Assembly (NCBI RefSeq): GCF_964213995.1 | Contig: NC_135803.1 | Span: forward strand, 121,086,001 to 121,150,000 | Length of the DNA stretch: 64,000 bases | Reading direction: 5' to 3' | Source: Mustelus asterias | Taxonomy: Eukaryota | Part shown: positions 1 through 60,544 of the stretch, one piece after another | Position numbering within the stretch: position 1 is the stretch's first letter | How the letters are laid out: each line of letters opens with the position of its first letter | Notes under the pieces: generated by a model | What the model was told of the DNA's origin: nothing | What the model saw: the letters and a program-made list of their open reading frames with translations, nothing else | The model's database searches: none | Program-made: the position numbers and the translations under genes

Positions 1-84
1 AAATAAACCTGTTGGACTTTAACCTGGTGTTGTGAGACTTCTTACTGTGCCCACCCCAGTCCAACGCCGGCATCTCCACATCAT
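1..84 (+). mobile_element. 3' arm of Penelope-like pseudo-LTR fold-back element (family 1), cut by window edge
   Basis: aaataaacctgttggactttaacctggtgttgtgagacttcttactgtg...ggcatctccacatcat is nearly identical to 45603-45686. Confidence 0.8.
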
Positions 85-4250: not shown

Positions 4251-4322
4251 CTGCGGATATGGTTACCAAGGATTCACCTGCACTTGCATGCAGTTTAACT
4301 AGTTACAGTATAAATGGAAGAG

Positions 4323-4516
4323 CTGAACCCAGGAGATAATTAGATGAGCATTAAATGGTGAGTTTTATTTTTTTTCCTCTCTCTAAATTGGGGCTTAAAC
4401 CGGTACAGGGGAAAAATACTTATTTTTCCCCTGTACCAGTTTAAGCCCCAATTTAGAGAGAGGAAAAAAAACAAAACTAACCATTTAATGCTCATCTAAT
4501 TATCTCCTGGGTTCAG
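4323..4516. repeat. Near-perfect 194-bp palindrome
   Basis: Arms ctgaacccaggag...gaaaaata and tatttttc...ctcctgggttcag with a 2-nt loop at 4419-4420. Confidence 0.95.
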
Positions 4517-4564
4517 TTCTCAGGTCTCCCCGTCTTTGCCTTCCTCTCTTGAACCACTCCTTTA

Positions 4565-11806: not shown

Positions 11807-13495
11807 AACATAAGAACATAAGAAATAGGAGCAGGAGTAGGCCATCTAGCCCCTCGAGCCTGCCCCGCCATTCAATAAGATCATGGCTGATCTGACGTGG
11901 ATCAGTACCACTTACCCGCCTGATCCCCATAACCCTTAATTCCCTTACCGATCAGGAATCCATCCATCCGCGCTTTAAACATATTCAGCGAGGTAGCCTC
12001 CACCACCTCAGTGGGCAGAGAATTCCAGAGATTCACCACCCTCTGGGAGAAGAAGTTCCTCCTCAACTCTGTCTTAAACCGACCCCCCTTTATTTTGAGG
12101 CTGTGTCCTCTAGTTTTAACTTCCTTACTAAGTGGAAAGAATCTCTCCGCCTCCACCCTATCCAGCCCCCGCATTATCTTATAAGTCTCCATAAGATCCC
12201 CCCTCATCCTTCTAAACTCCAACGAGTACAAACCCAATCTCCTCAGCCTCTCCTCATAATCCAAACCCCTCATCTCCGGTATCAACCTGGTGAACCTTCT
12301 CTGCACTCCCTCCAATGCCAATATATCCTTCCTCATATAAGGGGACCAATACTGCACACAGTATTCCAGCTGCGGCCTCACCAATGCCCTGTACAGGTGC
12401 ATCAAGACATCCCTGCTTTTATATTCTATCCCCCTCGCAATATAGGCCAACATCCCATTTGCCTTCTTGATCACCTGTTGTACCTGCAGACTGGGCTTTT
12501 GCGTCTCATGCACAAGGACCCCCAGGTCCCTTTGCACGGTAGCATGTTTTAATTTGTTTCCATTGAGATAGTAATCCCATTTGTTATTATTTCCTCCAAA
12601 GTGTATAACCTCGCATTTCTCAACGTTATACTCCATTTGCCATATCCTCGCCCACTCACTCAGCCTGTCCAAATCTCTCTGCAGATCTTCTCCGTCCTCC
12701 ACACGATTCACTTTTCCACTTATCTTTGTGTCGTCTGCAAACTTCGTTACCCTACACTCCGTCCCCTCCTCCAGATCATCTACATAAATGGTAAACAGTT
12801 GCGGCCCGAGTACCGATCCCTGCGGCACACCAGTAGTTACCTTCCTCCAACCGGAAAAACACCCATTTATTCCGACTCTTTGCTTCCTGTCGGACAGCCA
12901 GTCCCCAATCCACTTTAACACACTACCCCCAACTCCGTGTGCCCTAATCTTCTTCAGCAGCCTTTTATGGGGCACCTTATCAAACACCTTTTGGAAATCC
13001 AAAAACACCGCATCCACCGGTTCTCCTCCATCAACCGCCCTAGTCACATCTTCATAAAAATCCAACATGTTCGTCAAGCACGACTTTCCCCTCATGAATC
13101 CATGCTGCGTCTGATTGATCGAACCATTTCTATCCAGATGCCCTGCTATCTCCTCTTTAATAATGGATTCCAGCATTTTCCCTACTACAGACGTTAAGCT
13201 GACCGGCCTATAGTTACCCGCCTTTTGTCTCCTTCCTTTTTTAAACAGCGGCGTAACATTAGCCGTTTTCCAATCAACCGGCACTACCCCAGAATGCAAC
13301 GAGTTTTGATAAATAATCACTAACGCATCCACTATTACCTCTGACATTTCTTTCAATACCCTGGGATGCATTCCATCCGGACCCGGGGACTTGTCCACCT
13401 TCAGTCCCATTAGTCTACCCAGCACTGCCTCTCTGGTAACATTAATCGTATTAAGTATTTCTCCTGCTGCCAACCCTCTATCGTTAATATTTGGC
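11807..13495 (-). mobile_element. Young 5'-truncated CR1 LINE
   Basis: (aagaacat)n tail, uninterrupted RT ORF, 7-bp TSD atgtttg at 11800-11806 and 13496-13502. Confidence 0.95.
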
Positions 13496-13497
13496 AT
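11902..13497 (-). CDS. CR1 ORF2 fragment, reverse transcriptase without endonuclease (531 aa)
   Basis: KSPGPDG, NYRPVSLTS, QHGF, GVPQGSVLGP, FADD, LEYCVQYW motifs. Confidence 0.9.
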   Translation of the reverse strand: MPNINDRGLAAGEILNTINVTREAVLGRLMGLKVDKSPGPDGMHPRVLKEMSEVIVDALVIIYQNSLHSGVVPVDWKTANVTPLFKKGRRQKAGNYRPVSLTSVVGKMLESIIKEEIAGHLDRNGSINQTQHGFMRGKSCLTNMLDFYEDVTRAVDGGEPVDAVFLDFQKVFDKVPHKRLLKKIRAHGVGGSVLKWIGDWLSDRKQRVGINGCFSGWRKVTTGVPQGSVLGPQLFTIYVDDLEEGTECRVTKFADDTKISGKVNRVEDGEDLQRDLDRLSEWARIWQMEYNVEKCEVIHFGGNNNKWDYYLNGNKLKHATVQRDLGVLVHETQKPSLQVQQVIKKANGMLAYIARGIEYKSRDVLMHLYRALVRPQLEYCVQYWSPYMRKDILALEGVQRRFTRLIPEMRGLDYEERLRRLGLYSLEFRRMRGDLMETYKIMRGLDRVEAERFFPLSKEVKTRGHSLKIKGGRFKTELRRNFFSQRVVNLWNSLPTEVVEATSLNMFKARMDGFLIGKGIKGYGDQAGKWY

Positions 13498-13999
13498 GTT
13501 TGGTTGTATTAGGTGAAGATACCCATATTGGGAAAGTATGTACTTTAGCCTACAGTCAGCCGAGATGTAATCAACACTATCTAGTTGAAATTTTAAATGC
13601 GTACTACATTTGGCTCAGATCAATTTTTTTTTTTAACCATATTTAATACTCATTTACAAACTGTTCACACCACCAAAGTGGGCACGGCAAGTTTCCACCA
13701 AATATAACCATTCAAGAAGGCTTTTCAAATTGAGCTTTTTTTTTAGCACGCAGGAATGTTTTTAAATTTTCTTAAATATGAAAATAAATTTACTTTACTA
13801 TGAAACTGATATGTGCAATCAATGAAACTAGTAAATGGTTTAGTTTGTTTTCAAGTCACTGTCAGGTTAGATACTTATAAAATATTTATTATGATTTTAA
13901 ACACCCTTTATAGTCGTATTATTAAAACTCATGAGTTCCCACTTTTAAGTGCATCAATAGAGATATTTTTTGTAATGCAAGTAACACAAGTAAATGATG

Positions 14000-17134: not shown

Positions 17135-17620
17135 AAAAAGAAAGATTAGCATTTATATAGTCCCTTTCATGACCACTGGACATGCTAAAACACTTTACAG
17201 ACACTGAAATACTTTTGAAGTGTAGTCACTGTTGTGAAGTAGGAAACACAGCACAGCCAACAGCAATGTTGTTAATGACCAGATAATTTGTTTTTGTGAT
17301 GTTTGTTGAGATAGAAATATTGGCCAGGACATTAGGAATATCTCCCCTGTTCTTTGAAATTGTAAGAGTTTTAACAACATCAGGTTAAAGTCCAACAGGG
17401 TTATTTGGTAGCAAATGCCATTAGTCGTAAGGTTCCATTTGGTAGCAAATGCCTTTGAAATTGTGCCATGGGAGCTTTTATGTCCACCTGAGAGGGCAGT
17501 CTAGCCCCAGTTTAACATCTCAACCCAAAGTCAGCATCTCTAACAGTGCAGCACTGGACTTGCAGCCTGATTTTTGTGCTCAAGTCTTGAAATGGGCTTG
17601 AATCAAGAAACGTCTGACTC
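17135..17620 (-). mobile_element. DeuSINE-like element, interrupted by a PLE fragment
   Basis: Reverse complement of the family at 54449-55150 (ggccaatattt, ccatggcac, gtgctgcactgt, ctatataaatgc tail). Confidence 0.65.
17364..17452 (-). mobile_element. Short Penelope-like pLTR fragment (family 1) with 12-bp TSD
   Basis: caggttaaagtccaacagg...ggtagcaaat; TSD ctttgaaattgt at 17352-17363 and 17453-17464. Confidence 0.8.
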
Positions 17621-19538: not shown

Positions 19539-22358
19539 CTAAACCAATTTCTTTTCGTCCATGAACCTATCTACGGATCTCTTAAACGCCCCCAAACTAG
19601 GCGCATTTACTACTGATGCTGGCAGGGCATTCCAATCCCTCACCACCCTCTGGGTAAAGAACCTACCCCTGACATCGGTTCTATAACTACCCCCCCTCAA
19701 TTTAAAGCCATGCCCCCTCGTGCTGGATTTCTCCATCAGAGGAAAAAGGCTATCACTATCCACCCTATCTAAACCTCTAATCATCTTATATGTTTCAATA
19801 AGATCCCCTCTTAGCCGCCGCCTTTCCAGCGAAAACAATCCCAAATCCCTCAGCCTCTCCTCATAGGATCTCCCCTCCATACCAGGCAACATCCTGGTAA
19901 ACCTCCTCTGCACCCTCTCCAAAGCCTCCACATCCTTCCTGTAATGTGGGGACCAGAACTGCACACAGTACTCCAAGTGCGGCCGCACCAGAGTTGTGTA
20001 CAGTTGCAACATAACGCTACGACTCCTAAATTCAATCCCCCTACCAATAAACGCCAAGACACCATATGCCTTCTTAACAACCTTATCTACTTGATTCCCA
20101 ACTTTCAGGGATCTATGCACACATACACCTAGATCCCTCTGCTCCTCCACACTATTCAAAGTCCTCCCGTTAGCCCTATACTCAACACATCTGTTATTCC
20201 TACCAAAGTGAATTACCTCACACTTCTCCGCATTAAACTCCATCCGCCACCTCTCGGCCCAACTTTGCAACCTGTCTAAGTCTTCCTGCAAACTACGACA
20301 CCCTTCCTCACTGTCTACCACACCACCGACTTTGGTGTCATCAGCAAATTTGCTAATCCACCCAACTATACCCTCATCCAGATCATTAATAAATATTACA
20401 AACAGCAGTGGCCCCAAAACAGATCCCTGAGGTACACCACTTGTAACCGCACTCCATGATGAATATTTACTATCAACCACCACCCTCTGTTTCCTATCCG
20501 CTAGCCAATTCCTGATCCAATTTCCTAGATCACCCCCAATCCCATACATCTGCATTTTCTGCAGAAGCCTACCATGGTGAACCTTATCAAACGCCTTACT
20601 AAAATCCATATATACCACGTCCACTGCCTTGCCCCCATCCACCTCCTTGGTCACTTTCTCAAAAAACTCAATAAGGTTAGTAAGGCACGACCTACCTGCC
20701 ACAAAACCATGCTGACTATCACCTATCAATTCATTACTCTCCAAATAACTATAAATCCTATCCCTTATAATTTTTTCCAACATCTTGCCGACAACAGAAG
20801 TGAGACTCACCGGTCTATAATTCCCGGGGAAGTCTCTGTTCCCCTTCTTAAACAATGGGACAACATTCGCTAACCTCCAATCTTCTGGTACTATACCAGA
20901 GGCCAACGACGACCTGAAGATCAGAGCCAGAGGCTCTGCAATCACTTCTCTTGCCTCCCAGAGAATCCTTGGATAAATCCCATCCGGACCAGGGGATTTA
21001 TCTATTTTCAGACCCTCCAGAATATCCTGCACATCCTCCTTATCAACTGTAATACTGTCTATTCTACTCCCTTGCAACCCAGTGTCCTCCTCAGCTATAT
21101 TCATGTCCCCTTGCGTGAACACCGAAGAGAAATATTGGTTCAATGCTTCACCAATCTCCTCCGGTTCCACACATAACTTCCCTCTGCCATCTATAACTGG
21201 CCCTAAACTTGCCCTAACCAACCTTCTGTTCTTGACATACCTATAGAACGCCTTAGGATTCTCTTTAACCCTATCCGCCAAAGTCTTCTCATGTCCCCTT
21301 TTAGCCCTTCTAAGCTCGCTCTTCAACTCCCTCTTAGCCAATCTAAAGCTTTCTAGTGCACTACCCGAGTGCTCACGTCTCATCCGAACATAAGCCTCCT
21401 TTTTCTTTTTAACCAACAACGAAACTTTTTTGGTGCACCACGGTTCCCTAGCCCTACCAATTCCTCCTTGCCTGACAGGGACATACCTATCACAGACTCG
21501 CAGTAGCTGCTCCTTGAAAAAACTCCACATGTCGGACGTTCCCAGTCCCTGTAATCTCCTAGTCCAACCTATGTTTCCTAATTCTCTCCTAATAGCCTCA
21601 TAATTACCCTTCCCCCAGCTAAAACCACTGGCCCGAGGTTCATGCCTATCCCTTCCCATCACTAAGGTGAACGTAACCGAATTGTGGTCACTATCACCAA
21701 AATGCACACCAACTTCCAAGTCTAGCACCTGGTCTGGCTCATTTCCCAGCACCAGATCCAATATAGCCTCACCTCTAGTTGGCCTGTCTACATACTGAGT
21801 CAAAAAACCTTCCTGCACGCTTTGAACAAAAACTGACCCCTCTAACGAGCTAGAGCTATAACAATTCCAGTCAATATTAGTCAAGTTAAAATCCCCCATA
21901 ACAATTGCCCGATTACTTTCACTCCTAAGCAGGATTGACTCCGCAATCCTTTCCTCAACCTCTCTAGAACTTTTAGGAGGTCTATAAAAGACTCCCAACA
22001 GGGTGACCTCTCCTCTCCTATTTCTAATCTCCGCCCATACTACCTCAACAGATAAGTCCTCATCAAACCTCCTCTCTGACACTGTGATACAATCTCTGAC
22101 CAATAATGCTACCCCTCCCCCTCTTCTACCTCCTTCCCTACTTCGACTAAAACATTTGAACCCCGGGACCTGCAGCATCCATTCCTGCCCCTGCTCTATC
22201 CATGTCTCTGAAATAGCCACAACATCGAAGTCCCAGGTACTGATCCACGCTGCAAGTTCACCCACTTTATTGCGAATACTCCTGGCATTGAAGTATACAC
22301 ATTTCAAACCCTGCTCCACCCCACCTCTGCAATGCCGTGCATTGCAGTCCCCATCCAT
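19539..22358 (-). CDS. CR1 ORF2: AP-endonuclease plus reverse transcriptase (939 aa)
   Basis: YFNARSI, ISETW, YRPP, GDFN, LDLVL, SDHN (endonuclease); QHGF, PQGSVLGP, FADD (RT). Confidence 0.96.
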   Translation of the reverse strand: MDGDCNARHCRGGVEQGLKCVYFNARSIRNKVGELAAWISTWDFDVVAISETWIEQGQEWMLQVPGFKCFSRSREGGRRGGGVALLVRDCITVSERRFDEDLSVEVVWAEIRNRRGEVTLLGVFYRPPKSSREVEERIAESILLRSESNRAIVMGDFNLTNIDWNCYSSSSLEGSVFVQSVQEGFLTQYVDRPTRGEAILDLVLGNEPDQVLDLEVGVHFGDSDHNSVTFTLVMGRDRHEPRASGFSWGKGNYEAIRRELGNIGWTRRLQGLGTSDMWSFFKEQLLRVCDRYVPVRQGGIGRAREPWCTKKVSLLVKKKKEAYVRMRREHSGSALESFRLAKRELKSELRRAKRGHEKTLADRVKENPKAFYRYVKNRRLVRASLGPVIDGRGKLCVEPEEIGEALNQYFSSVFTQGDMNIAEEDTGLQGSRIDSITVDKEDVQDILEGLKIDKSPGPDGIYPRILWEAREVIAEPLALIFRSSLASGIVPEDWRLANVVPLFKKGNRDFPGNYRPVSLTSVVGKMLEKIIRDRIYSYLESNELIGDSQHGFVAGRSCLTNLIEFFEKVTKEVDGGKAVDVVYMDFSKAFDKVHHGRLLQKMQMYGIGGDLGNWIRNWLADRKQRVVVDSKYSSWSAVTSGVPQGSVLGPLLFVIFINDLDEGIVGWISKFADDTKVGGVVDSEEGCRSLQEDLDRLQSWAERWRMEFNAEKCEVIHFGRNNRCVEYRANGRTLNSVEEQRDLGVCVHRSLKVGNQVDKVVKKAYGVLAFIGRGIEFRSRSVMLQLYTTLVRPHLEYCVQFWSPHYRKDVEALERVQRRFTRMLPGMEGRSYEERLRDLGLFSLERRRLRGDLIETYKMIRGLDRVDSDSLFPLMEKSSTRGHGFKLRGGSYRTDVRGRFFTQRVVRDWNALPASVVNAPSLGAFKRSVDRFMDEKKLV

Positions 22359-22409
22359 GCATCCCTCACTTTCAGCCCCACTACTCAGGATCCCTCCCCC
22401 CCCCCCGAA

Positions 22410-27900: not shown

Positions 27901-28432
27901 AAAGAAAATTACTGCAGATGCTGGAATCTGAAACCAAAAGAGAAAATGCTGGAAAATCTCAGCAGATCTGGCAGCATCTGTATCATAGAATCATAGAAAC
28001 CCTACAGTGCAGAAGGAGGCCATTCGGCCCATCGAGTCGGCACCAACCACAATCCCACCCAGGCCCTACCCCCACATATTTACCCACTAATCCCTCTAAC
28101 CTACGCATTTTAGGATTCTAAGGGGCAATTTTTAACCTGGCCAATCAACCTAACCCGCACATCTTTGGACTGTGGGAGGAAACCGGAGCACCTGGAGGAA
28201 ACCCACGCAGACACGAGGAGAACGTGCAAACTCCACACAGACAGTGACCCGAGCCGGGAATCGAACCCGGGACCCTGGAGCTGTGAAGCAGCAGTGCTAA
28301 CCACTGCGCTACCGTGCCGCAGAAAAGAACTGATGTTTCAAGTCCAGATGACGCTTTGTCAAAGCTTTAACAAAGGGTCATCTGGACTCAAAATGTCAGT
28401 TCTTTCTTTCCTTACAGATGCTGTCAGACCTG
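27901..28432. mobile_element. Penelope-like fold-back element (family 2) with nested SINE
   Basis: Palindrome centred at 28364/28365; TSD agttaagaatt at 27887-27897 and 28433-28443. Confidence 0.7.
27983..28320 (-). mobile_element. Young full-length HE1-type V-SINE
   Basis: Consensus-like, CpG-retaining head and (tcatagaa) tail. Confidence 0.92.
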
Positions 28433-29015: not shown

Positions 29016-30097
29016 GGTCGGGATTCTCCTAAAAAAAATGAAGTGCCCAAACGACGGGTAGACAGAAGAATTTGAACATAGTGCAAGAATCCCTCGCCCT
29101 ATGTGCATCACAGAGTGCCTCAGAGAAACTCACAATGATAAGTAGGGGGCGGGGCCTCATCCTGCCAAGAGGTGGGCAGCATAGTGCTGAGCGGGCCACT
29201 TCGCAGGCAGTGATCTGTCAGTGGGGAGATCGGTGCATGTGCACTGGCCTCCCAATCTCTGGTCTCCCAATTTATTTTGCTGCCCACCCCCCTACCCGCC
29301 ATGGCCAATCCCGTATGCCCCCTCCCTCCCTCTCCCACTGATCCCCTTGCAGCGGGTCCCCCCATCTCCACTACTGACTGTCCACCCCCAGCAGGCCCCA
29401 CCCCCTTGGCATTGCCCAGTGCCCCCTTGGCACTACCATCCCGAATCTACTAATCATATGGAAATAGTGATTTGGCTGATTACGTGGGGAAAAAAGGGCC
29501 TGGAGGACTCGCAATCAGCCGGACGCCAGTAGTGAGTCCCATCACAGCCCACCCACCAGCCCCCCTGCACACCCACCTCCCCACTGATGTCTCCCGGCCT
29601 GCTGTGCTGCTTGAGCAGTCGATGGTAGTCATGATGTGGAGATGCTGGCGTTGGACTGGGGTAAACACAGTAAGAGTTTTAACAACACCAGGTTAAAGTC
29701 CAACAGGATTATTTGGTAGCAAATACCATTAGCTTTCGGAGCGCTGCTCCTTTGTCAGATGGAGTGGAAATCTGCTCTCAAACAGGGCACAAAGACACAA
29801 AATCAAGTTACAGAATACTGATTAGAATGCGAATCTCTACAACCAACCAGGTCTTAAAGATACAGACAATGTGAGTGGAGGGAGTGGCTGCAGAGATTCG
29901 CATTCTAATCAGTGTTCTGAAACTTGATTTTGTGTCTCTGTGCCCTGTTTGAGAGCACATTTCCACTCCATCTGACGAAGGAGCAGCACTCCGAAATCTG
30001 ATAGTATTTGCTACCAAATAAACCTGTTGGACTTTAACCTGGTGTTGTTAAAACTCTTACTGCTTGAGCAGTGCAGTGGGCTGGGAGAATCCCGGCC
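29016..30097. mobile_element. MITE, probably Harbinger-derived, hosting a PLE insertion
   Basis: 14-bp TIR ggtcgggattctcc / ggagaatcccggcc; 3-bp flanks aac/gac. Confidence 0.65.
29620..30059. mobile_element. Penelope-like fold-back insertion (family 1) with hammerhead motif
   Basis: Inverted arms; ctgacgaaggagcagcactccgaaa near 29972; TSD ctgcttgagcagt at 29607-29619 and 30060-30072. Confidence 0.85.
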
Positions 30098-33000
30098 GAC
30101 ATCAGTTATCCAAATGGTGTCATCCTGGGAGAAAACAGTGATTCTTAGATTTGTTCTATCTTGTGTTTTAAATGCAGAAATAATAAAAGTTGCCTTTCAG
30201 TCATTTGATTATGTTCTGATTATTATTATTAATGAACAGATGACTGCTGTCGCCCCACCCCCCTCGCCTCTATTATTTCAACATGATTGAATACAATGCA
30301 AACCAAAGGTTTTAGCCATTTTTACTTAAACAATTTATGTCAGATATTTGATAAAGTAAGTTTTCAGTTTGAATATTTTCCTGATTATTTGACAGATCAA
30401 TTCCTCTCCTTAAATATCTTCCCACTCCTAATGGCTTTTAATCCTCATCCACTAATTCATTCTGAACGACTGTCCCACAGCACAATTTACTTCCTTCTTT
30501 CTGAGCTCAGGGTTATGTTCCAGAAGTCCACTTCTGTTTCTGTCCATGTCAGTCTTTCCCTCTGGCCTGGAGACCAGTAAAATCCGAGATGTCCTAAAAC
30601 AGAGGATGGAACCTTCCCTAACTAACACCATGAGGCTGTTTCGCAGCCACTTCTCGCCCACCTTCTGTTCCTGGGAAATTACGAGGACCTCATTTGGAAT
30701 TGAATCATTCGGTTTGTTCCACTCTCCATTTCAGCTGGAAGTCACCTCTTCCTCACAGGTCCTGATCTGGGAATGAAAAACCTTGCACGTTCATCGTCTT
30801 GATCTCTGCACAAGGAGCCTGTTGTGCAGCGTGGGTGTGTAGACCCCGGGTCTAAACATAGGGATGTTACACACTCAGGTTGTCCCACTGAGAGAGCCTG
30901 TATATGTGCTAGCTATCTTCTCTTTGTGTAGGTTTTAAAATTACGAATGGTCTCCCCACAATTCCTTCCTCTACTTGCTGACTTGTAAAAGGATAATTTG
31001 TGGCACTATTGCATCCTGATGATGTCTGGAGTTACTTTTGCTGCATTTTTTAAACAACTTGGGCTGTATTTTGTGGTCAGTGGCAAAGCAATGACATTCG
31101 CCACTGACCTTGAAGAAATCTGCCACAAAGATACAGCGGTCTCTGTGGCAAGTATTTCCCCTTTCCTCACAACAGTTCAACTCTGCAGCCAAGTCAAAAG
31201 ATTATCCAGAATTCCAGCAGCAATGTTAGCAAATGGGATGAGCAGCCAAACACATTGAAGTATTCTCACAGACAGCAAATCAGGAAATTAAAAGCACTGA
31301 TTATTGCCTTTTTTAATTTAAATTTTCAGATAGCAAAATAAATTATGGTTGGATTAAGGTGGAAGCTCAAATATCCCAAACTTTTGAAAACCATCCACAT
31401 ATATTTTAAATATTTTATAATGGAGAAATTCAAAATTTCACAAATATAAAATGAGCTTGGGATGAATAAGGGTGTTGAACTATAATTATGAATTACACCA
31501 TTAAAAATCCGATTAGACCTTTTTCAACAAAGTGTCACTTAAAAGGGTTTTACAGTGAGACTAACAGTGCAAAAGTTGAAGTGTTCATCAATTCGCTGAT
31601 TGCTTAGATTCTGCGCTCTGATGGAACCTCTGAAGTAATGTAGAATCACTGACAGTAATTTCTGTATTTCTGCATCATTTTGGAATCCTGATGTTGCTGT
31701 CTGTGTTAAAATGATAAAATACATGGGATTGGATTTTGTGGTGGTAATGACAGTAAAACTCTTAGCACTCACTTTCATTACTCCTCTAACAGTTTTACTG
31801 TCATTACCACCACAAAGTCCGAGCCAAAGTATTTTACCATGAACAGTATTCATCAAAGTAAACACATATGTATAATCTCATATAGCTAAGAAACAAAAAT
31901 CACAGGAAGATTACCATTGTGGAGGTGGATAATTGTGATGTTAAGATTGAAGCTCAGATTAGGTAGATGGATTATTTAAAAATATATTACAGCGCTATGG
32001 GAACAAGGTGGATAAATGTGATAAGAACTGTTGGCTTGCATAGAGTGTGACCGCGGGGTGAACATTGACACCTATATTTAAGAAGCTGGCGTGAATATTT
32101 AGCAATTAACTCTAGGATAATTTCTTTGAAGACTATAAAAGGCAGCATTTCTGGACTGCAACTTCTCTACAAAAAATGCAACATCCAGACTTCCCAGTTA
32201 GATAAACACTTTAACAAACAGTGCATTATTGTAAAGCAAATTGGGACAGAAGACATGCACTTGGATCTATCTGGGATTTAAGCCTAAGTTAATATGTGTG
32301 ATGTCAGGCATTTTAAAGCATCTAAACCTAAAGCATCTGGAAAGCTATGCTTTTAGAGAAAGTTTTTAATGGGGCACTTAAGCGAAATGTGTCTGTGGGA
32401 TGATGTAGCTTTAAAATCACCCTCTTGTATACAGCTGTAGTGTAATATATTGTGCCATGTATAGTCCTTATGTTTGGCACAAGATAAATGCTATGTGCTC
32501 CATGTGTATATAAGCCAATCTCAATTGACTTTCAGATACTGTTCGCCATTACTTTTTCACAATATTCTTTCAGAAATTAAACTACAATAAAATATCTGTC
32601 TTCTGGCATGTTCTAGGAATGGATGTACTGGTTAATTAAAAATGCCAGTTAACTAAAATGAAAGATGACTTCTGCATTTCCATCCAATCAGAAAACTTCT
32701 GATATTGACCAATTAGTGAGTGGCTGGGTGATTTCACAGTGATGTGGGTTTTGAGCTATCACTGAAGGTGTGTGAGTGTGTGGATCTAGTGAACAGTGTG
32801 GAGGGTACATGGTGCCACAGAACGGTGGGAGGCTGAGACCAGAGCAGGGCAGGTCACTGATAATAACTACCTGTGGGTTTCACAATTACTCGCGATTGTG
32901 TTAAGAGTGGGACTGATGAGGAACGGTGAACATAACCATTCGGCAACAAGTGTTAGCATCAGCTTCTGAGGGATGAGAAACATCTGCAATCAAAAGACAG

Positions 33001-44627: not shown

Positions 44628-45698
44628 GGGTGGAAGTTTAAGGAAGGATGGCGCTTGCCATCCTGTGAGTCGGTGTGTAACGCGCTACTGCCATCTCTCA
44701 GAAGCCCACTTCCATTTCACGCTTACTTCAGCGCCTACCCTTGGAAGGAAGTTCCACCTGTGAGAGCTGTTGGATAATCAGATTGGCAGACAACTCTCCA
44801 ACCCAGCCAGGCACAGCGCTGCAGTGGCCAGAGGAGGTACTGCAGTGCTCTCGCTGGAACCAAGTTCAGGGACCATTGTAAAGCTAAGTCCTGGGGGCGG
44901 GAAGGGGAGGGAATCACGGCTTTGGGGAGGTTGGCTGGGTAGAATGGGGGTGAAGGCCAGAATGTCAAGGTCCCAGAGGGAAGGGTGCCCCAAATCTGAA
45001 TCACATATCCAGTCCGAGATGGAGAAAAGTTTTTTTCGCTGTTTCCCACCTTACTTGCACCCAATCCCGCCAGCCTAAAAATACTTAAGTGACCTTAAAA
45101 CATACTGTGGACTTACCCACCTCCCCCACTCTCTTCACCAAACCCCCGCTCCCTGCACCCTCAATTAACTCTGGGCTCTGGGGCAGGATGGGACAACGTC
45201 TTCTTCCTTCCACTTGGCCAAATGAGGCCCTTAAGTGGCCAATTACGCGGCACTTATGAATCGCATACCACCGTCATTTGTATTCTACCAGTGCCAGGCT
45301 GTTTGGGTGCAGCTGTATCCTGTGGGCAGGCTGCCGGGTATACAATAGAGGGCCCTGCAGCAGCTGGAGGTGGGATATCTATCATGTAGGCCATTGGAGA
45401 CACCTGAGAAAACCATGGCAAAGTTGTCTCTGGCTCTCCAGCTGATGGATGGGTTTATTGCTATGGCCATTAAATCCAGTAAGAAGTCTCACAACACCAG
45501 GTTAAAGTCCAACAGGTTTATTTGGTAGCAAATACCATAAGCTTTCGGAGCGCTGCCCCTTGGCCCTTGGCAGCGCTCCGAAAGCTTATGGTATTTGCTA
45601 CCAAATAAATCTGTTGGACTTTAACCTGGTGTTGTGAGACTTCTTACTGTGCTTACCCCAGTCCAACGCCGGCATCTCCACATCATTAAATCCAGCCC
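44628..45698. mobile_element. Old MITE-like element
   Basis: Termini gggtggaagttta / taaatccagccc; GC-rich interior. Confidence 0.45.
45480..45686. mobile_element. Penelope-like fold-back insertion (family 1)
   Basis: Near-perfect inverted arms around 45557-45569; TSD cattaaatccag at 45468-45479 and 45684-45695. Confidence 0.9.
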
Positions 45699-46207: not shown

Positions 46208-46447
46208 TGATGTGGAGATGCCGGCATTGGACTGGGGTAAACACAGTAAGAAGTCTCTCAACGCCAGGTTAAAGTCCAACAGGTTTATTTGGTAGCAAAA
46301 GCCACTAGCTTTCGGAGCGCTGCTCCTTTGTCAGGTAAGACGTTAATTTTTCGTTACCTGACGAAGGAGCAGCGCTCTGAAAACTAGTGGCTTTTGCTAC
46401 CAAATAAACCTGTTGGACTTTAACCTGGTGTTCTGAGACTTCTTACT
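46208..46447. mobile_element. Penelope-like fold-back insertion (family 1) with hammerhead motif
   Basis: Inverted arms; ctgacgaaggagcagcgctctgaaa near 46358; TSD gtgttgctacca at 46196-46207 and 46448-46459. Confidence 0.9.
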
Positions 46448-59590: not shown

Positions 59591-60135
59591 CCATCTTTTT
59601 ACTGTATGTATCCCCACGCTTTGAATCATTTTGCACAAGATAACGTCCAACTGCCCAGTATACCTGAAGTTTCCTGGTATAAGACCGCAGCTTTGTTTGG
59701 TAGACTGGGCCATCAGAGTCGACACTTGAGAGCTCTGCACCAAAGCAAGTATACAAACCCACCCTCAGGAGTGCTCGTATTCTCATTTCTGCATATTTGT
59801 GACAGCTGATTCACCAAGTGAAAATCTTCCTCTAACCTATCCTTTGAAGTGTGTGTGGTGTTAGTCACTGACTTGCTGCAAGCTAGAGTTGGATTGATTA
59901 ATGTATCTTCAGGAAGACTGACCCTCAAATGGCAGAGGTGTCCACTTGAGATGAATCAGAAGGGTAAGGGTTAACTTGCAGTGTGGAAGAAGAGTAGAGA
60001 GGTAATTGGCTGCTGTTAGGCTATGACCAAAATGAGAGGCATGATGTGGAGATGCCGGCGTTGGACTGGGGTAAACACAGTAAGGAGTCTAACAACATCA
60101 GGTTAAAGTCCAACAGGTTTATTTGGTAGCAAACG

Positions 60136-60171
60136 CCACTAGCTTTCGGAGCGCTGCTCCTTCGTCAGGTG
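60136..60171 (-). ncRNA. Minimal type I hammerhead ribozyme motif (mirror copy)
   Basis: Exact reverse complement of 60259-60294. Confidence 0.7.
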
Positions 60172-60258
60172 AGTGGGAGATCTGCTCATAAACAGTCAGG
60201 TGAGTGGGAGATCTGCTCATTAACAGGATATATCCTGTTAATGAGCAGATCTCCCACT

Positions 60259-60293
60259 CACCTGACGAAGGAGCAGCGCTCCGAAAGCTAGTG
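60259..60293 (+). ncRNA. Minimal type I hammerhead ribozyme motif
   Basis: CAC-CUGACGA-A-GGAGC(AGC)GCUCC-GAAA-GC-UA-GUG: stem I CAC/GUG, 5-bp stem II, palindromic AGCU helix III. Confidence 0.72.
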
Positions 60294-60544
60294 GCGTTTG
60301 CTACCAAATAAACCTGTTGGACTTTAACCTGATGTTGTTAGACTCCTTATCAAAATGAGACTCAGACACCTTGGGGTGGCAGTTGGCTGGATCGCTGGTG
60401 TGGTTCAGATTGGTGTCAACAGCATGAGGTTGATCTATGTTCTGGTTGGGGTGTGTTCGGGACCTGCCTCCTTGCCCCATCCATGGTGAAGGTTGTGGCA
60501 TTGTGGCGTGGACCTGCCTGCGGGCAGATAATTCAAGAAGGAGA

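Follow-up and report, generated by a model that had tools for sequence, protein, structure and literature searches.

The stretch of DNA analysed here (the window) comprises 64,000 nucleotides of the genome of the shark Mustelus asterias (NC_135803.1, positions 121,086,001 to 121,150,000, forward strand), and it carries a head-to-head insert at 60038-60350, the parts of which are listed in Table 1. The two arms (60081-60195 and 60235-60349, 115 nt each) are 99% complementary, and the hairpin fold has a z of -31.5. The motif CUGACGA / stem II / GAAA / UA, which the first-pass annotation had described as complete on each strand, was found in full on both. In the plus-strand copy, stem I is formed by 60258-61 and 60291-94, followed inwards by the core (60262-68), a bulged A (60269), stem II (60270-74 with 60278-82) and GAAA (60283-86), with a palindromic AGCU and the predicted cut after A60290. 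The 36-nt insert at the junction probably arose when the end of the tail-less arm snapped back locally, as fill-in during end joining.

All six related inserts reported earlier for the window, this one included, were recovered by blastn, and five have their own target site duplication (TSD) in the reported range of 10-13 bp (10, 12, 13, 12 and 12 bp). Four had been described as head-to-head, which is right for those four but short as a total, because 1-84 is an arm of a fifth such copy (5/6). The window also contains two unrelated near-perfect hairpins (4319-4520 and 31711-31840), which had no second copy in the sequence compared and gave only sub-threshold matches to microRNA families in Rfam. 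In addition, a short palindromic, MITE-like repeat with few copies elsewhere lies at 28324-28405, and the minus-strand open frames of 956 codons (19542-22409) and 570 codons (11905-13614) probably belong to young LINE copies.

Table 1. Features of the focal insert, related inserts of the window and selected copies elsewhere
Feature	Position	Strand	Remarks
Left TSD copy, 10 bp	60028-60037	+	CAAAATGAGA; TG half-site 60024-60025; from sequence
Tailed arm, PLE 3' end	60038-60195	-	From ~14 nt above candidate 3' splice site, via hammerhead, to tail end
Tail, ~40 nt, left arm only	60038-60080	-	ORF start codon at 60042-60040, minus strand; tail stops at the element's ATG
Minimal type I hammerhead motif, tailed arm	60136-60172	-	Predicted cut between 60140 and 60139; from sequence
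Junction insert, 36 nt	60195-60230	+	Perfect reverse complement of 60231-60266; central palindrome
Tail-less arm	60231-60350	+	Stops 37 nt before ATG
Conserved CAG	60246-60248	+	Candidate 3' splice site of retained 71-72 nt intron; 13 nt before core; motifs only
Minimal type I hammerhead, tail-less arm	60258-60294	+	Sequence, motif parse, pairing across copies, folding
Right TSD copy	60351-60360	+	CAAAATGAGA; CA half-site 60363-60364; spacing here TG-N14-CA
Tailed (right) arm of head-to-head copy	1-84	+	Left arm and TSD just before window start
Single tail-less copy	17364-17452	-	12-bp TSD; templated 5' insert
Head-to-head copy, older subfamily	29620-30059	.	Stem I U-A pair; 13-bp TSD
Head-to-head copy, truncated inside stem II	45480-45686	.	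12-bp TSD; TG-N16-CA site
Head-to-head copy, hammerheads mutated	46208-46447	.	12-bp TSD
Candidate intron GTAAGT...CAG, 72 nt	L061:8130-8201		Ends 13 nt above hammerhead core
Copies from internally deleted templates	G000:C1:100062194-100062725; L171:1174-1895; G000:C3 block at 173991-175106 from window start		

The insert had been proposed to belong to a young shark Penelope-like element (PLE) family with a minimal type I hammerhead, and copies adjoining an ORF for a reverse transcriptase (RT) with a GIY-YIG endonuclease (EN) were to be expected. Such an ORF was found in the genome, where a walk upstream on the ribozyme strand enters a GIY-YIG and RT frame. At one locus (L061:5324-8002), an intact ORF of 892 aa is followed by the same 3' end as in the hairpin inserts; the intact copy there (L061:5319-8320) starts at the tail end, that is at the ATG, and stops at the tail-less site. 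The ORF carries DKG, YIDD, a CX4CxxC linker (C754-x4-C759-xx-C762) and VYLIRC..WYIG. DKG and YIDD were invariant in 50 aligned proteins, 48 of which had the linker. RVT_1 was the only Pfam domain found on the ORF (E = 1.3e-9); GIY-YIG gave 5.9e-4 on the C-terminal piece, below the cut-off, and PF01541 was present on many homologues. With the C-terminal 242 aa as a query, 96,212 first-look candidates were obtained in the genome, and the 150 of them that were scored were 91-95% identical (the query's own locus aside), with open frames of up to 939 aa. The best named protein relatives were shark proteins (85-94% identity), which supports the shark origin read in the first pass.

The single ORF with a PLE-type RT plus a GIY-YIG at its C terminus is that of an EN+ PLE. 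Furthermore, the copies show the pLTR or partial tandem, the 5' truncation, the adjacent inverted copy and the tail of 30-40 bp known from PLEs, and some read past the tail end into the ORF, the start codon of which forms the tail boundary. A CX2-5CxxC linker between RT and EN marks Neptune or Nematis and is absent in Penelope/Poseidon, according to the relevant part of Craig et al. 2021 (PMC8557442), and vertebrate PLEs fell in Neptune or Poseidon in the part of bioRxiv 10.64898/2026.07.22.740005 cited here. The family was therefore classed as Neptune-type on these two observations. A microsatellite target bias, hypothesised for Neptune and not defining for all of its members, was not observed; the targets are TG-N16-CA sites with a non-repetitive core. 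A MITE-like DNA transposon was rejected as an identity, since its two ends differ and the interior runs on into the RT/EN ORF. The long ORFs beside several top matches, which we take to be similar to those of CR1-type LINEs, were set aside as unrelated host sequence of the insertions.

The abundance of the family was estimated from 864 kb of contiguous sequence in four contigs, chosen irrespective of the family save that one block includes the window. This census gave 49 insertions (57 per Mb), which extrapolates to about 209,000 per genome (3.68-Gb assembly; Poisson 154,000-276,000). Head-to-head copies accounted for 29 of the 49, 26 of them at first pass and three with a short or cut second arm. 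The first-pass copies had a median length of 255 bp (n = 26), and all 26 had a TSD, in 25 cases of at least 12 bp with no more than one mismatch, compared with 9% of 400 random pairs in a chance control. The earlier statement that the usual product is a tiny ORF-less hairpin thus holds for the commonest product. It does not hold for the family as such, because head-to-head copies range continuously in length from 108 bp to 5.2 kb, and the longest (L070) has a 765-codon open frame in each arm; the same layout at every size indicates that the short hairpin is a truncation product of an autonomous element. The arms of the youngest pairs differ at 0 of about 660 bases, and the activity is therefore recent.

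The hammerhead motif was compared across 172 parsed arms. Each core position was kept in 161-172 of the 172, and N7 varied freely; the first pair of stem I was C-G in 149 arms and U-A in 15, by a fuzzy motif match that is partly conditioned on the core. The first three pairs of stem I and the five of stem II were paired in 94-99%, with compensatory changes, in counts inflated by related copies. In a pairing test on 14 distinct rows, 99% of the cells were paired and three pairs showed two-sided change, a result reached in 2 of 500 shuffles. Covariation in both stems, as anticipated in the first pass, is thus present. The core, the bulge, helices I and II and a palindromic remnant of helix III are those of a minimal type I hammerhead, lacking a stable helix III; core, stems and AGCU were all kept in 108 of the 172 motifs. 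Rfam returned no hammerhead family among 12 matches at E ≤ 10, and a single hammerhead folded no better than its shuffles (z -0.02).

Long double-stranded RNA had been suggested to compete with self-cleavage. According to folding calculations, adopting the active hammerhead fold within the focal copy would cost 67 kcal/mol relative to the hairpin, and the hairpin is predicted to win outright, since, in addition to this cost, the antisense arm is transcribed first on either strand and the opposite-strand motifs cannot dimerise in cis. The hammerhead is predicted to be buried and inert inside the hairpin, a passenger that would be copied uncut as part of the pLTR. Cleaved RNA was rejected as the template: among 239 arms, at loci many of which were chosen with hammerhead-containing queries, 218 continue above the cut site, and a start within 2 nt of that site occurs once (2.7 expected), with no pile-up of 5' ends there. 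The strongest reading of the first-pass annotation, in which the hairpin itself is a mobile, ribozyme-regulated mini-element, agrees with hairpins being the majority class, with the 108 motifs kept and with the existence of deleted tandem mini-templates; yet the junctions are private to each copy among the copies listed, the lengths are continuous, the motif is buried and the arms pass the cut site, and we find this reading scarcely credible. It is the source elements that are under selection, rather than the insertion scars, and the mirror-image ribozyme is an ordinary by-product.

Some copies come from internally deleted templates, in which pLTR, tail and about 90-105 nt of the ORF lead back to the 3' part (Table 1). 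They resemble non-autonomous, retrozyme-like units, and only a few such partial tandem mini-units were seen. The focal copy is head-to-head and does not have the head-to-tail units, each with a hammerhead, of non-LTR retrozymes.

A GTA...CAG pair spaced by 71-72 nt is conserved across the subfamilies and forms, on the motifs alone, a candidate retained intron. An exact-pattern search for an intron-less genomic copy gave 0 matches, and no splice joint was present among the 15 joints listed of 206 in contigs of sequencing runs. Among hammerhead-bearing arms of the unselected set, 26 of 48 stop 0-15 nt above the CUGA core (for example at window positions 46346-46360), near the conserved CAG, and these stops may correspond to the template RNA's 5' end.

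The outer ends of the copies proved to be of two kinds. After deduplication, 239 arm ends from all loci, many long copies among them having been picked with tailed-end or EN-domain queries, fell within 5 nt of the tail end (137), 25-40 nt short of it (98) or elsewhere (4), and the tail ended at ATG -2 to +7 in 61 of 64. Every one of the 72 TSD-bounded head-to-head pairs combined a tailed with a tail-less end, without a single pair of two tails or two short ends. The unselected 864 kb gave mixed ends in 26/26, plus three short-armed pairs. This rule was not found in print in the open-access literature searched. When the TSD filter was removed, six further mixed pairs appeared, and four other pairings were internal tandems or separate insertions; two pairs had an outer end beyond the locus, and one L1-type inversion (L034/L051) had its outer end inside the ORF. 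The single, unexplained exception to the rule is a head-to-head copy beside an ORF fragment (L178:816-1642), which lacks a TSD and has each of its arms tailed. The copy at L034:245-3400 is near full-length, and its template was uncut, since the inverted part extends above the hammerhead cut site.

Of the single tail-less copies, nine are flanked by a TSD, seven of these with the TG half-site, which indicates that the tail-less end is an independent start site. Among single tailed copies, the motif stood at the expected offset in only 2/11, at TSD edges that are uncertain. Loose ends at both 3'-end positions were also seen in contigs of four sequencing runs (three guessed to be RNA, and one further, large run).

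The target of the insertions is palindromic and two-fold symmetric, with TG-N16-CA around a duplication of 12 bp. The exact TSD length had its mode at 12 bp (27/68). Empty sites were rebuilt for 60 insertions with a TSD of 10-16 bp, leaving out L180, which is nearly identical to L170. At 40 of these sites TG and CA lay 16 apart, where 2.2 would be expected; spacings of 14 (12 sites) and 17 (13 sites) formed minor classes. CA stood at +3/+4 on 39 and 36 of 60 sides, against a background of 7.7%. A few of these sites are copies of one host repeat, and the sites are therefore not fully independent; the core is AT-rich (63%) and non-repetitive. At L069, L030, L170/L180 and in census copies, abundant host repeats had been hit independently at one and the same position, and such hot spots are consistent with sequence-specific targeting.

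With the nicks fixed by the target motif, primer-template matches in 37 sites came to 49 nt at the tail end and 53 nt at the tail-less end, compared with 14.7 and 17.4 nt for permuted primers (0/2000 permutations). Primer microhomology is thus present at both outer ends, at about three times the permuted level; neither this nor the palindromic target was found in print in the open-access literature searched. Published accounts explain the inverted copies and the tail, in the parts cited, by endonuclease resolution (PMC8557442) or by antisense self-priming (PMC3846280). The latter was put forward by Arkhipova et al. 2013 (PMC3846280) for Penelope copies arranged head-to-head. It is a hypothesis for the same architecture that explains junction palindromes and intron retention, and our search found no intron-less copies; however, it predicts neither the target-primer microhomology at both outer ends nor fixed outer ends matching two start sites mapped on the sense RNA, which makes it very improbable here.

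Both arms of a pair come from one source sequence. In 12 young pairs, minority variants common to the two arms occur at 7.7/kb, six times the 1.3/kb of randomly paired young arms, and differences at non-CpG variants that also occur elsewhere amount to 1.2/kb, compared with 10.4/kb. A tree of 58 arms, with rough support, placed both arms of a pair in the same subfamily, and one copy has a private deletion whose junction is crossed by each of its arms. The likeness of the arms could also be due to gene conversion or to polishing of the assembly. Priming of the two strands by two separate RNPs, each with its own RNA, would fit the symmetric target, the microhomology at both ends and the finding that either arm may be the longer. 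However, it predicts pairs of two tails and of two short ends, seen in 0/72, and arms from different source copies, whereas the arms share source variants. It would survive only with an obligately asymmetric dimer loading RNAs from one locus, and we judge it quite improbable.

Arm lengths bear on the fold-back mechanism assumed in the first pass. With a difference of more than 20 nt counted as longer, the tail-less arm was longer in 19 of the 72 pairs and the tailed arm in 17; 26 were equal within 20 nt, and 10 were complex, leaving 62 simple pairs. A stricter pass gave 10, 14 and 22, respectively (46 pairs). Some copies with arms only 1-2% apart in sequence have a tail-less arm that is 0.7-1 kb longer than the tailed one, and longer tail-less arms (19/62) were not found in print in the open-access literature searched. 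Simple fold-back cannot give this result, because a snap-back copy never exceeds its tail-primed cDNA; nor can the tail-less cDNA have been the source, as its copy could not gain the tail. A deletion that removed sequence asymmetrically around the palindrome centre once the copy had inserted could produce the same appearance.

A fuller snap-back scheme would have the tail-primed cDNA fold back and copy itself, the second target strand prime on sense DNA near the tail-less site, and a later central deletion make the arms unequal. It explains the pairing of one end of each kind and the shared variants, is compatible with the microhomology at the tail-less end, and agrees with the 26 of 62 equal pairs. 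The junctions, which have short overlaps or templated inserts, frequently hold a short stretch of snap-back sequence, of 36 nt at the focal junction, also as this scheme expects. On the other hand, it has to meet the 19 longer tail-less arms in copies with such similar arms, near-perfect palindromes of 3.8 and 5.2 kb persist undeleted (L071 and L070), and a TSD and motif of their own accompany single tail-less copies. We consider it unlikely.

The fixed anatomy, with one long and one short end at a symmetric target, suggests that the RNA was likely copied from both cut strands at once. The insert derives from a Neptune-type PLE, as a head-to-head copy truncated at the 5' end, and we think it probable that both nicked strands primed on one RNA and that the cDNAs were end-joined. 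In this mechanism, a two-fold symmetric endonuclease complex, putatively a protein dimer, would nick both strands about 12 nt apart; as the duplication is primed from both sides, we infer that the nicks leave 3' overhangs of about 12 nt. Each target 3' end would then prime reverse transcription on the element RNA, at the tail end in one case and about 37 nt inward of it in the other. PLE RTs are not known to have RNase H, and one RNA could serve both enzymes, the trailing, tail-primed RT presumably displacing the leading cDNA. The two cDNA 3' ends would finally be joined by microhomology and templated fill-in, presumably much as in polymerase-theta joining. In LINE-1 twin priming, both target strands also prime on one RNA and the cDNAs are joined by microhomology. 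The second L1 primer lands anywhere inside the element and gives an inversion of non-overlapping parts, whereas the second primer of the shark PLE, at a fixed site 37 nt from the first, would give an inverted duplication.

Minimal hammerheads, inverted copies and the tail are already published PLE traits; the shark family is a very abundant addition to the known PLEs, and it is the end-pairing rule together with the palindromic target that gives it its value. In the parts of Craig et al. 2021 (PMC8557442) cited here, Neptune-clade EN+ PLEs likewise have a C-terminal GIY-YIG, the CX2-5CxxC linker, DKG, 5' truncation, an adjacent inverted copy and a tail of 30-40 bp at one end. The shark family differs from them in its palindromic TG-N16-CA site instead of a microsatellite target, in the strict one-of-each rule, compared with an optional tail ascribed to endonuclease resolution, and in its roughly 200,000 extrapolated insertions. 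The head-to-head Penelope copies of Adineta vaga (PMC3846280, part cited) are also similar, with an inverted pLTR, a tail on one end, a TSD of 8-10 bp and junction palindromes, but they are few and were explained by self-priming on an antisense template.

In the part cited of Frangieh et al. 2024 (PMC11167929), the Poseidon element PAc of Anolis carolinensis nicked and extended both strands in vitro and used uncut RNA, two RT start sites delimited its tail, and a dimer was predicted. The two start sites delimiting the tail are shared with the shark family, and the hammerhead was not needed for PAc insertion. However, PAc belongs to a different clade, its ORF starts inside the hammerhead, its start sites lie about 111 nt or more into the ORF instead of at ATG and ATG-37, and it prefers ATT, unlike the TG-N16-CA motif, and showed no difference in start site between strands; the last two points count against the mechanism proposed here. 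That part of the paper (PMC11167929) does not tie the two start sites to inverted copies.

The metazoan PLE hammerheads of Cervera and De la Pena 2014 (PMC4209133, in the part cited) share with the shark motif the short helix I, the bulged base before helix II, G10.1-C11.1 and the palindromic 15.2-16.2, and differ in the helix II of 5-6 bp. The same part reports that minimal PLE hammerheads need a dimer and cleave weakly, and that opposite-strand pairs 100-700 bp apart occur in Schistosoma (PMC4209133). An intron end adjoins helix I in D. virilis (PMC4209133), as does the candidate intron in the shark family. The hosts named in that part are fishes, coelacanth, Xenopus and reptiles, and not sharks (PMC4209133).

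A wider claim is that PLEs integrate mainly by symmetric double priming, with a dimer, a palindromic TG-N16-CA target, 12-nt 3' overhangs and RT starts 37 nt apart on one RNA; to us the case for it and the case against it are evenly balanced. If it is true, the inverted duplication with its one-sided tail would be the direct product of the reaction, because of the spacing of the two starts on one RNA, and some 10^5 shark insertions would record symmetric double priming. PLEs are the sister group of telomerase, and the natural intact ORF and the defined target motif make their integration step testable in vitro. Moreover, the about 120,000 perfect or near-perfect hairpins per genome (59% of the extrapolated 209,000) would be a substantial potential source of dsRNA in sharks. 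The end pairing, the symmetric target, the stagger and the microhomology are quantitative rules that point to one mechanism for PLE integration.
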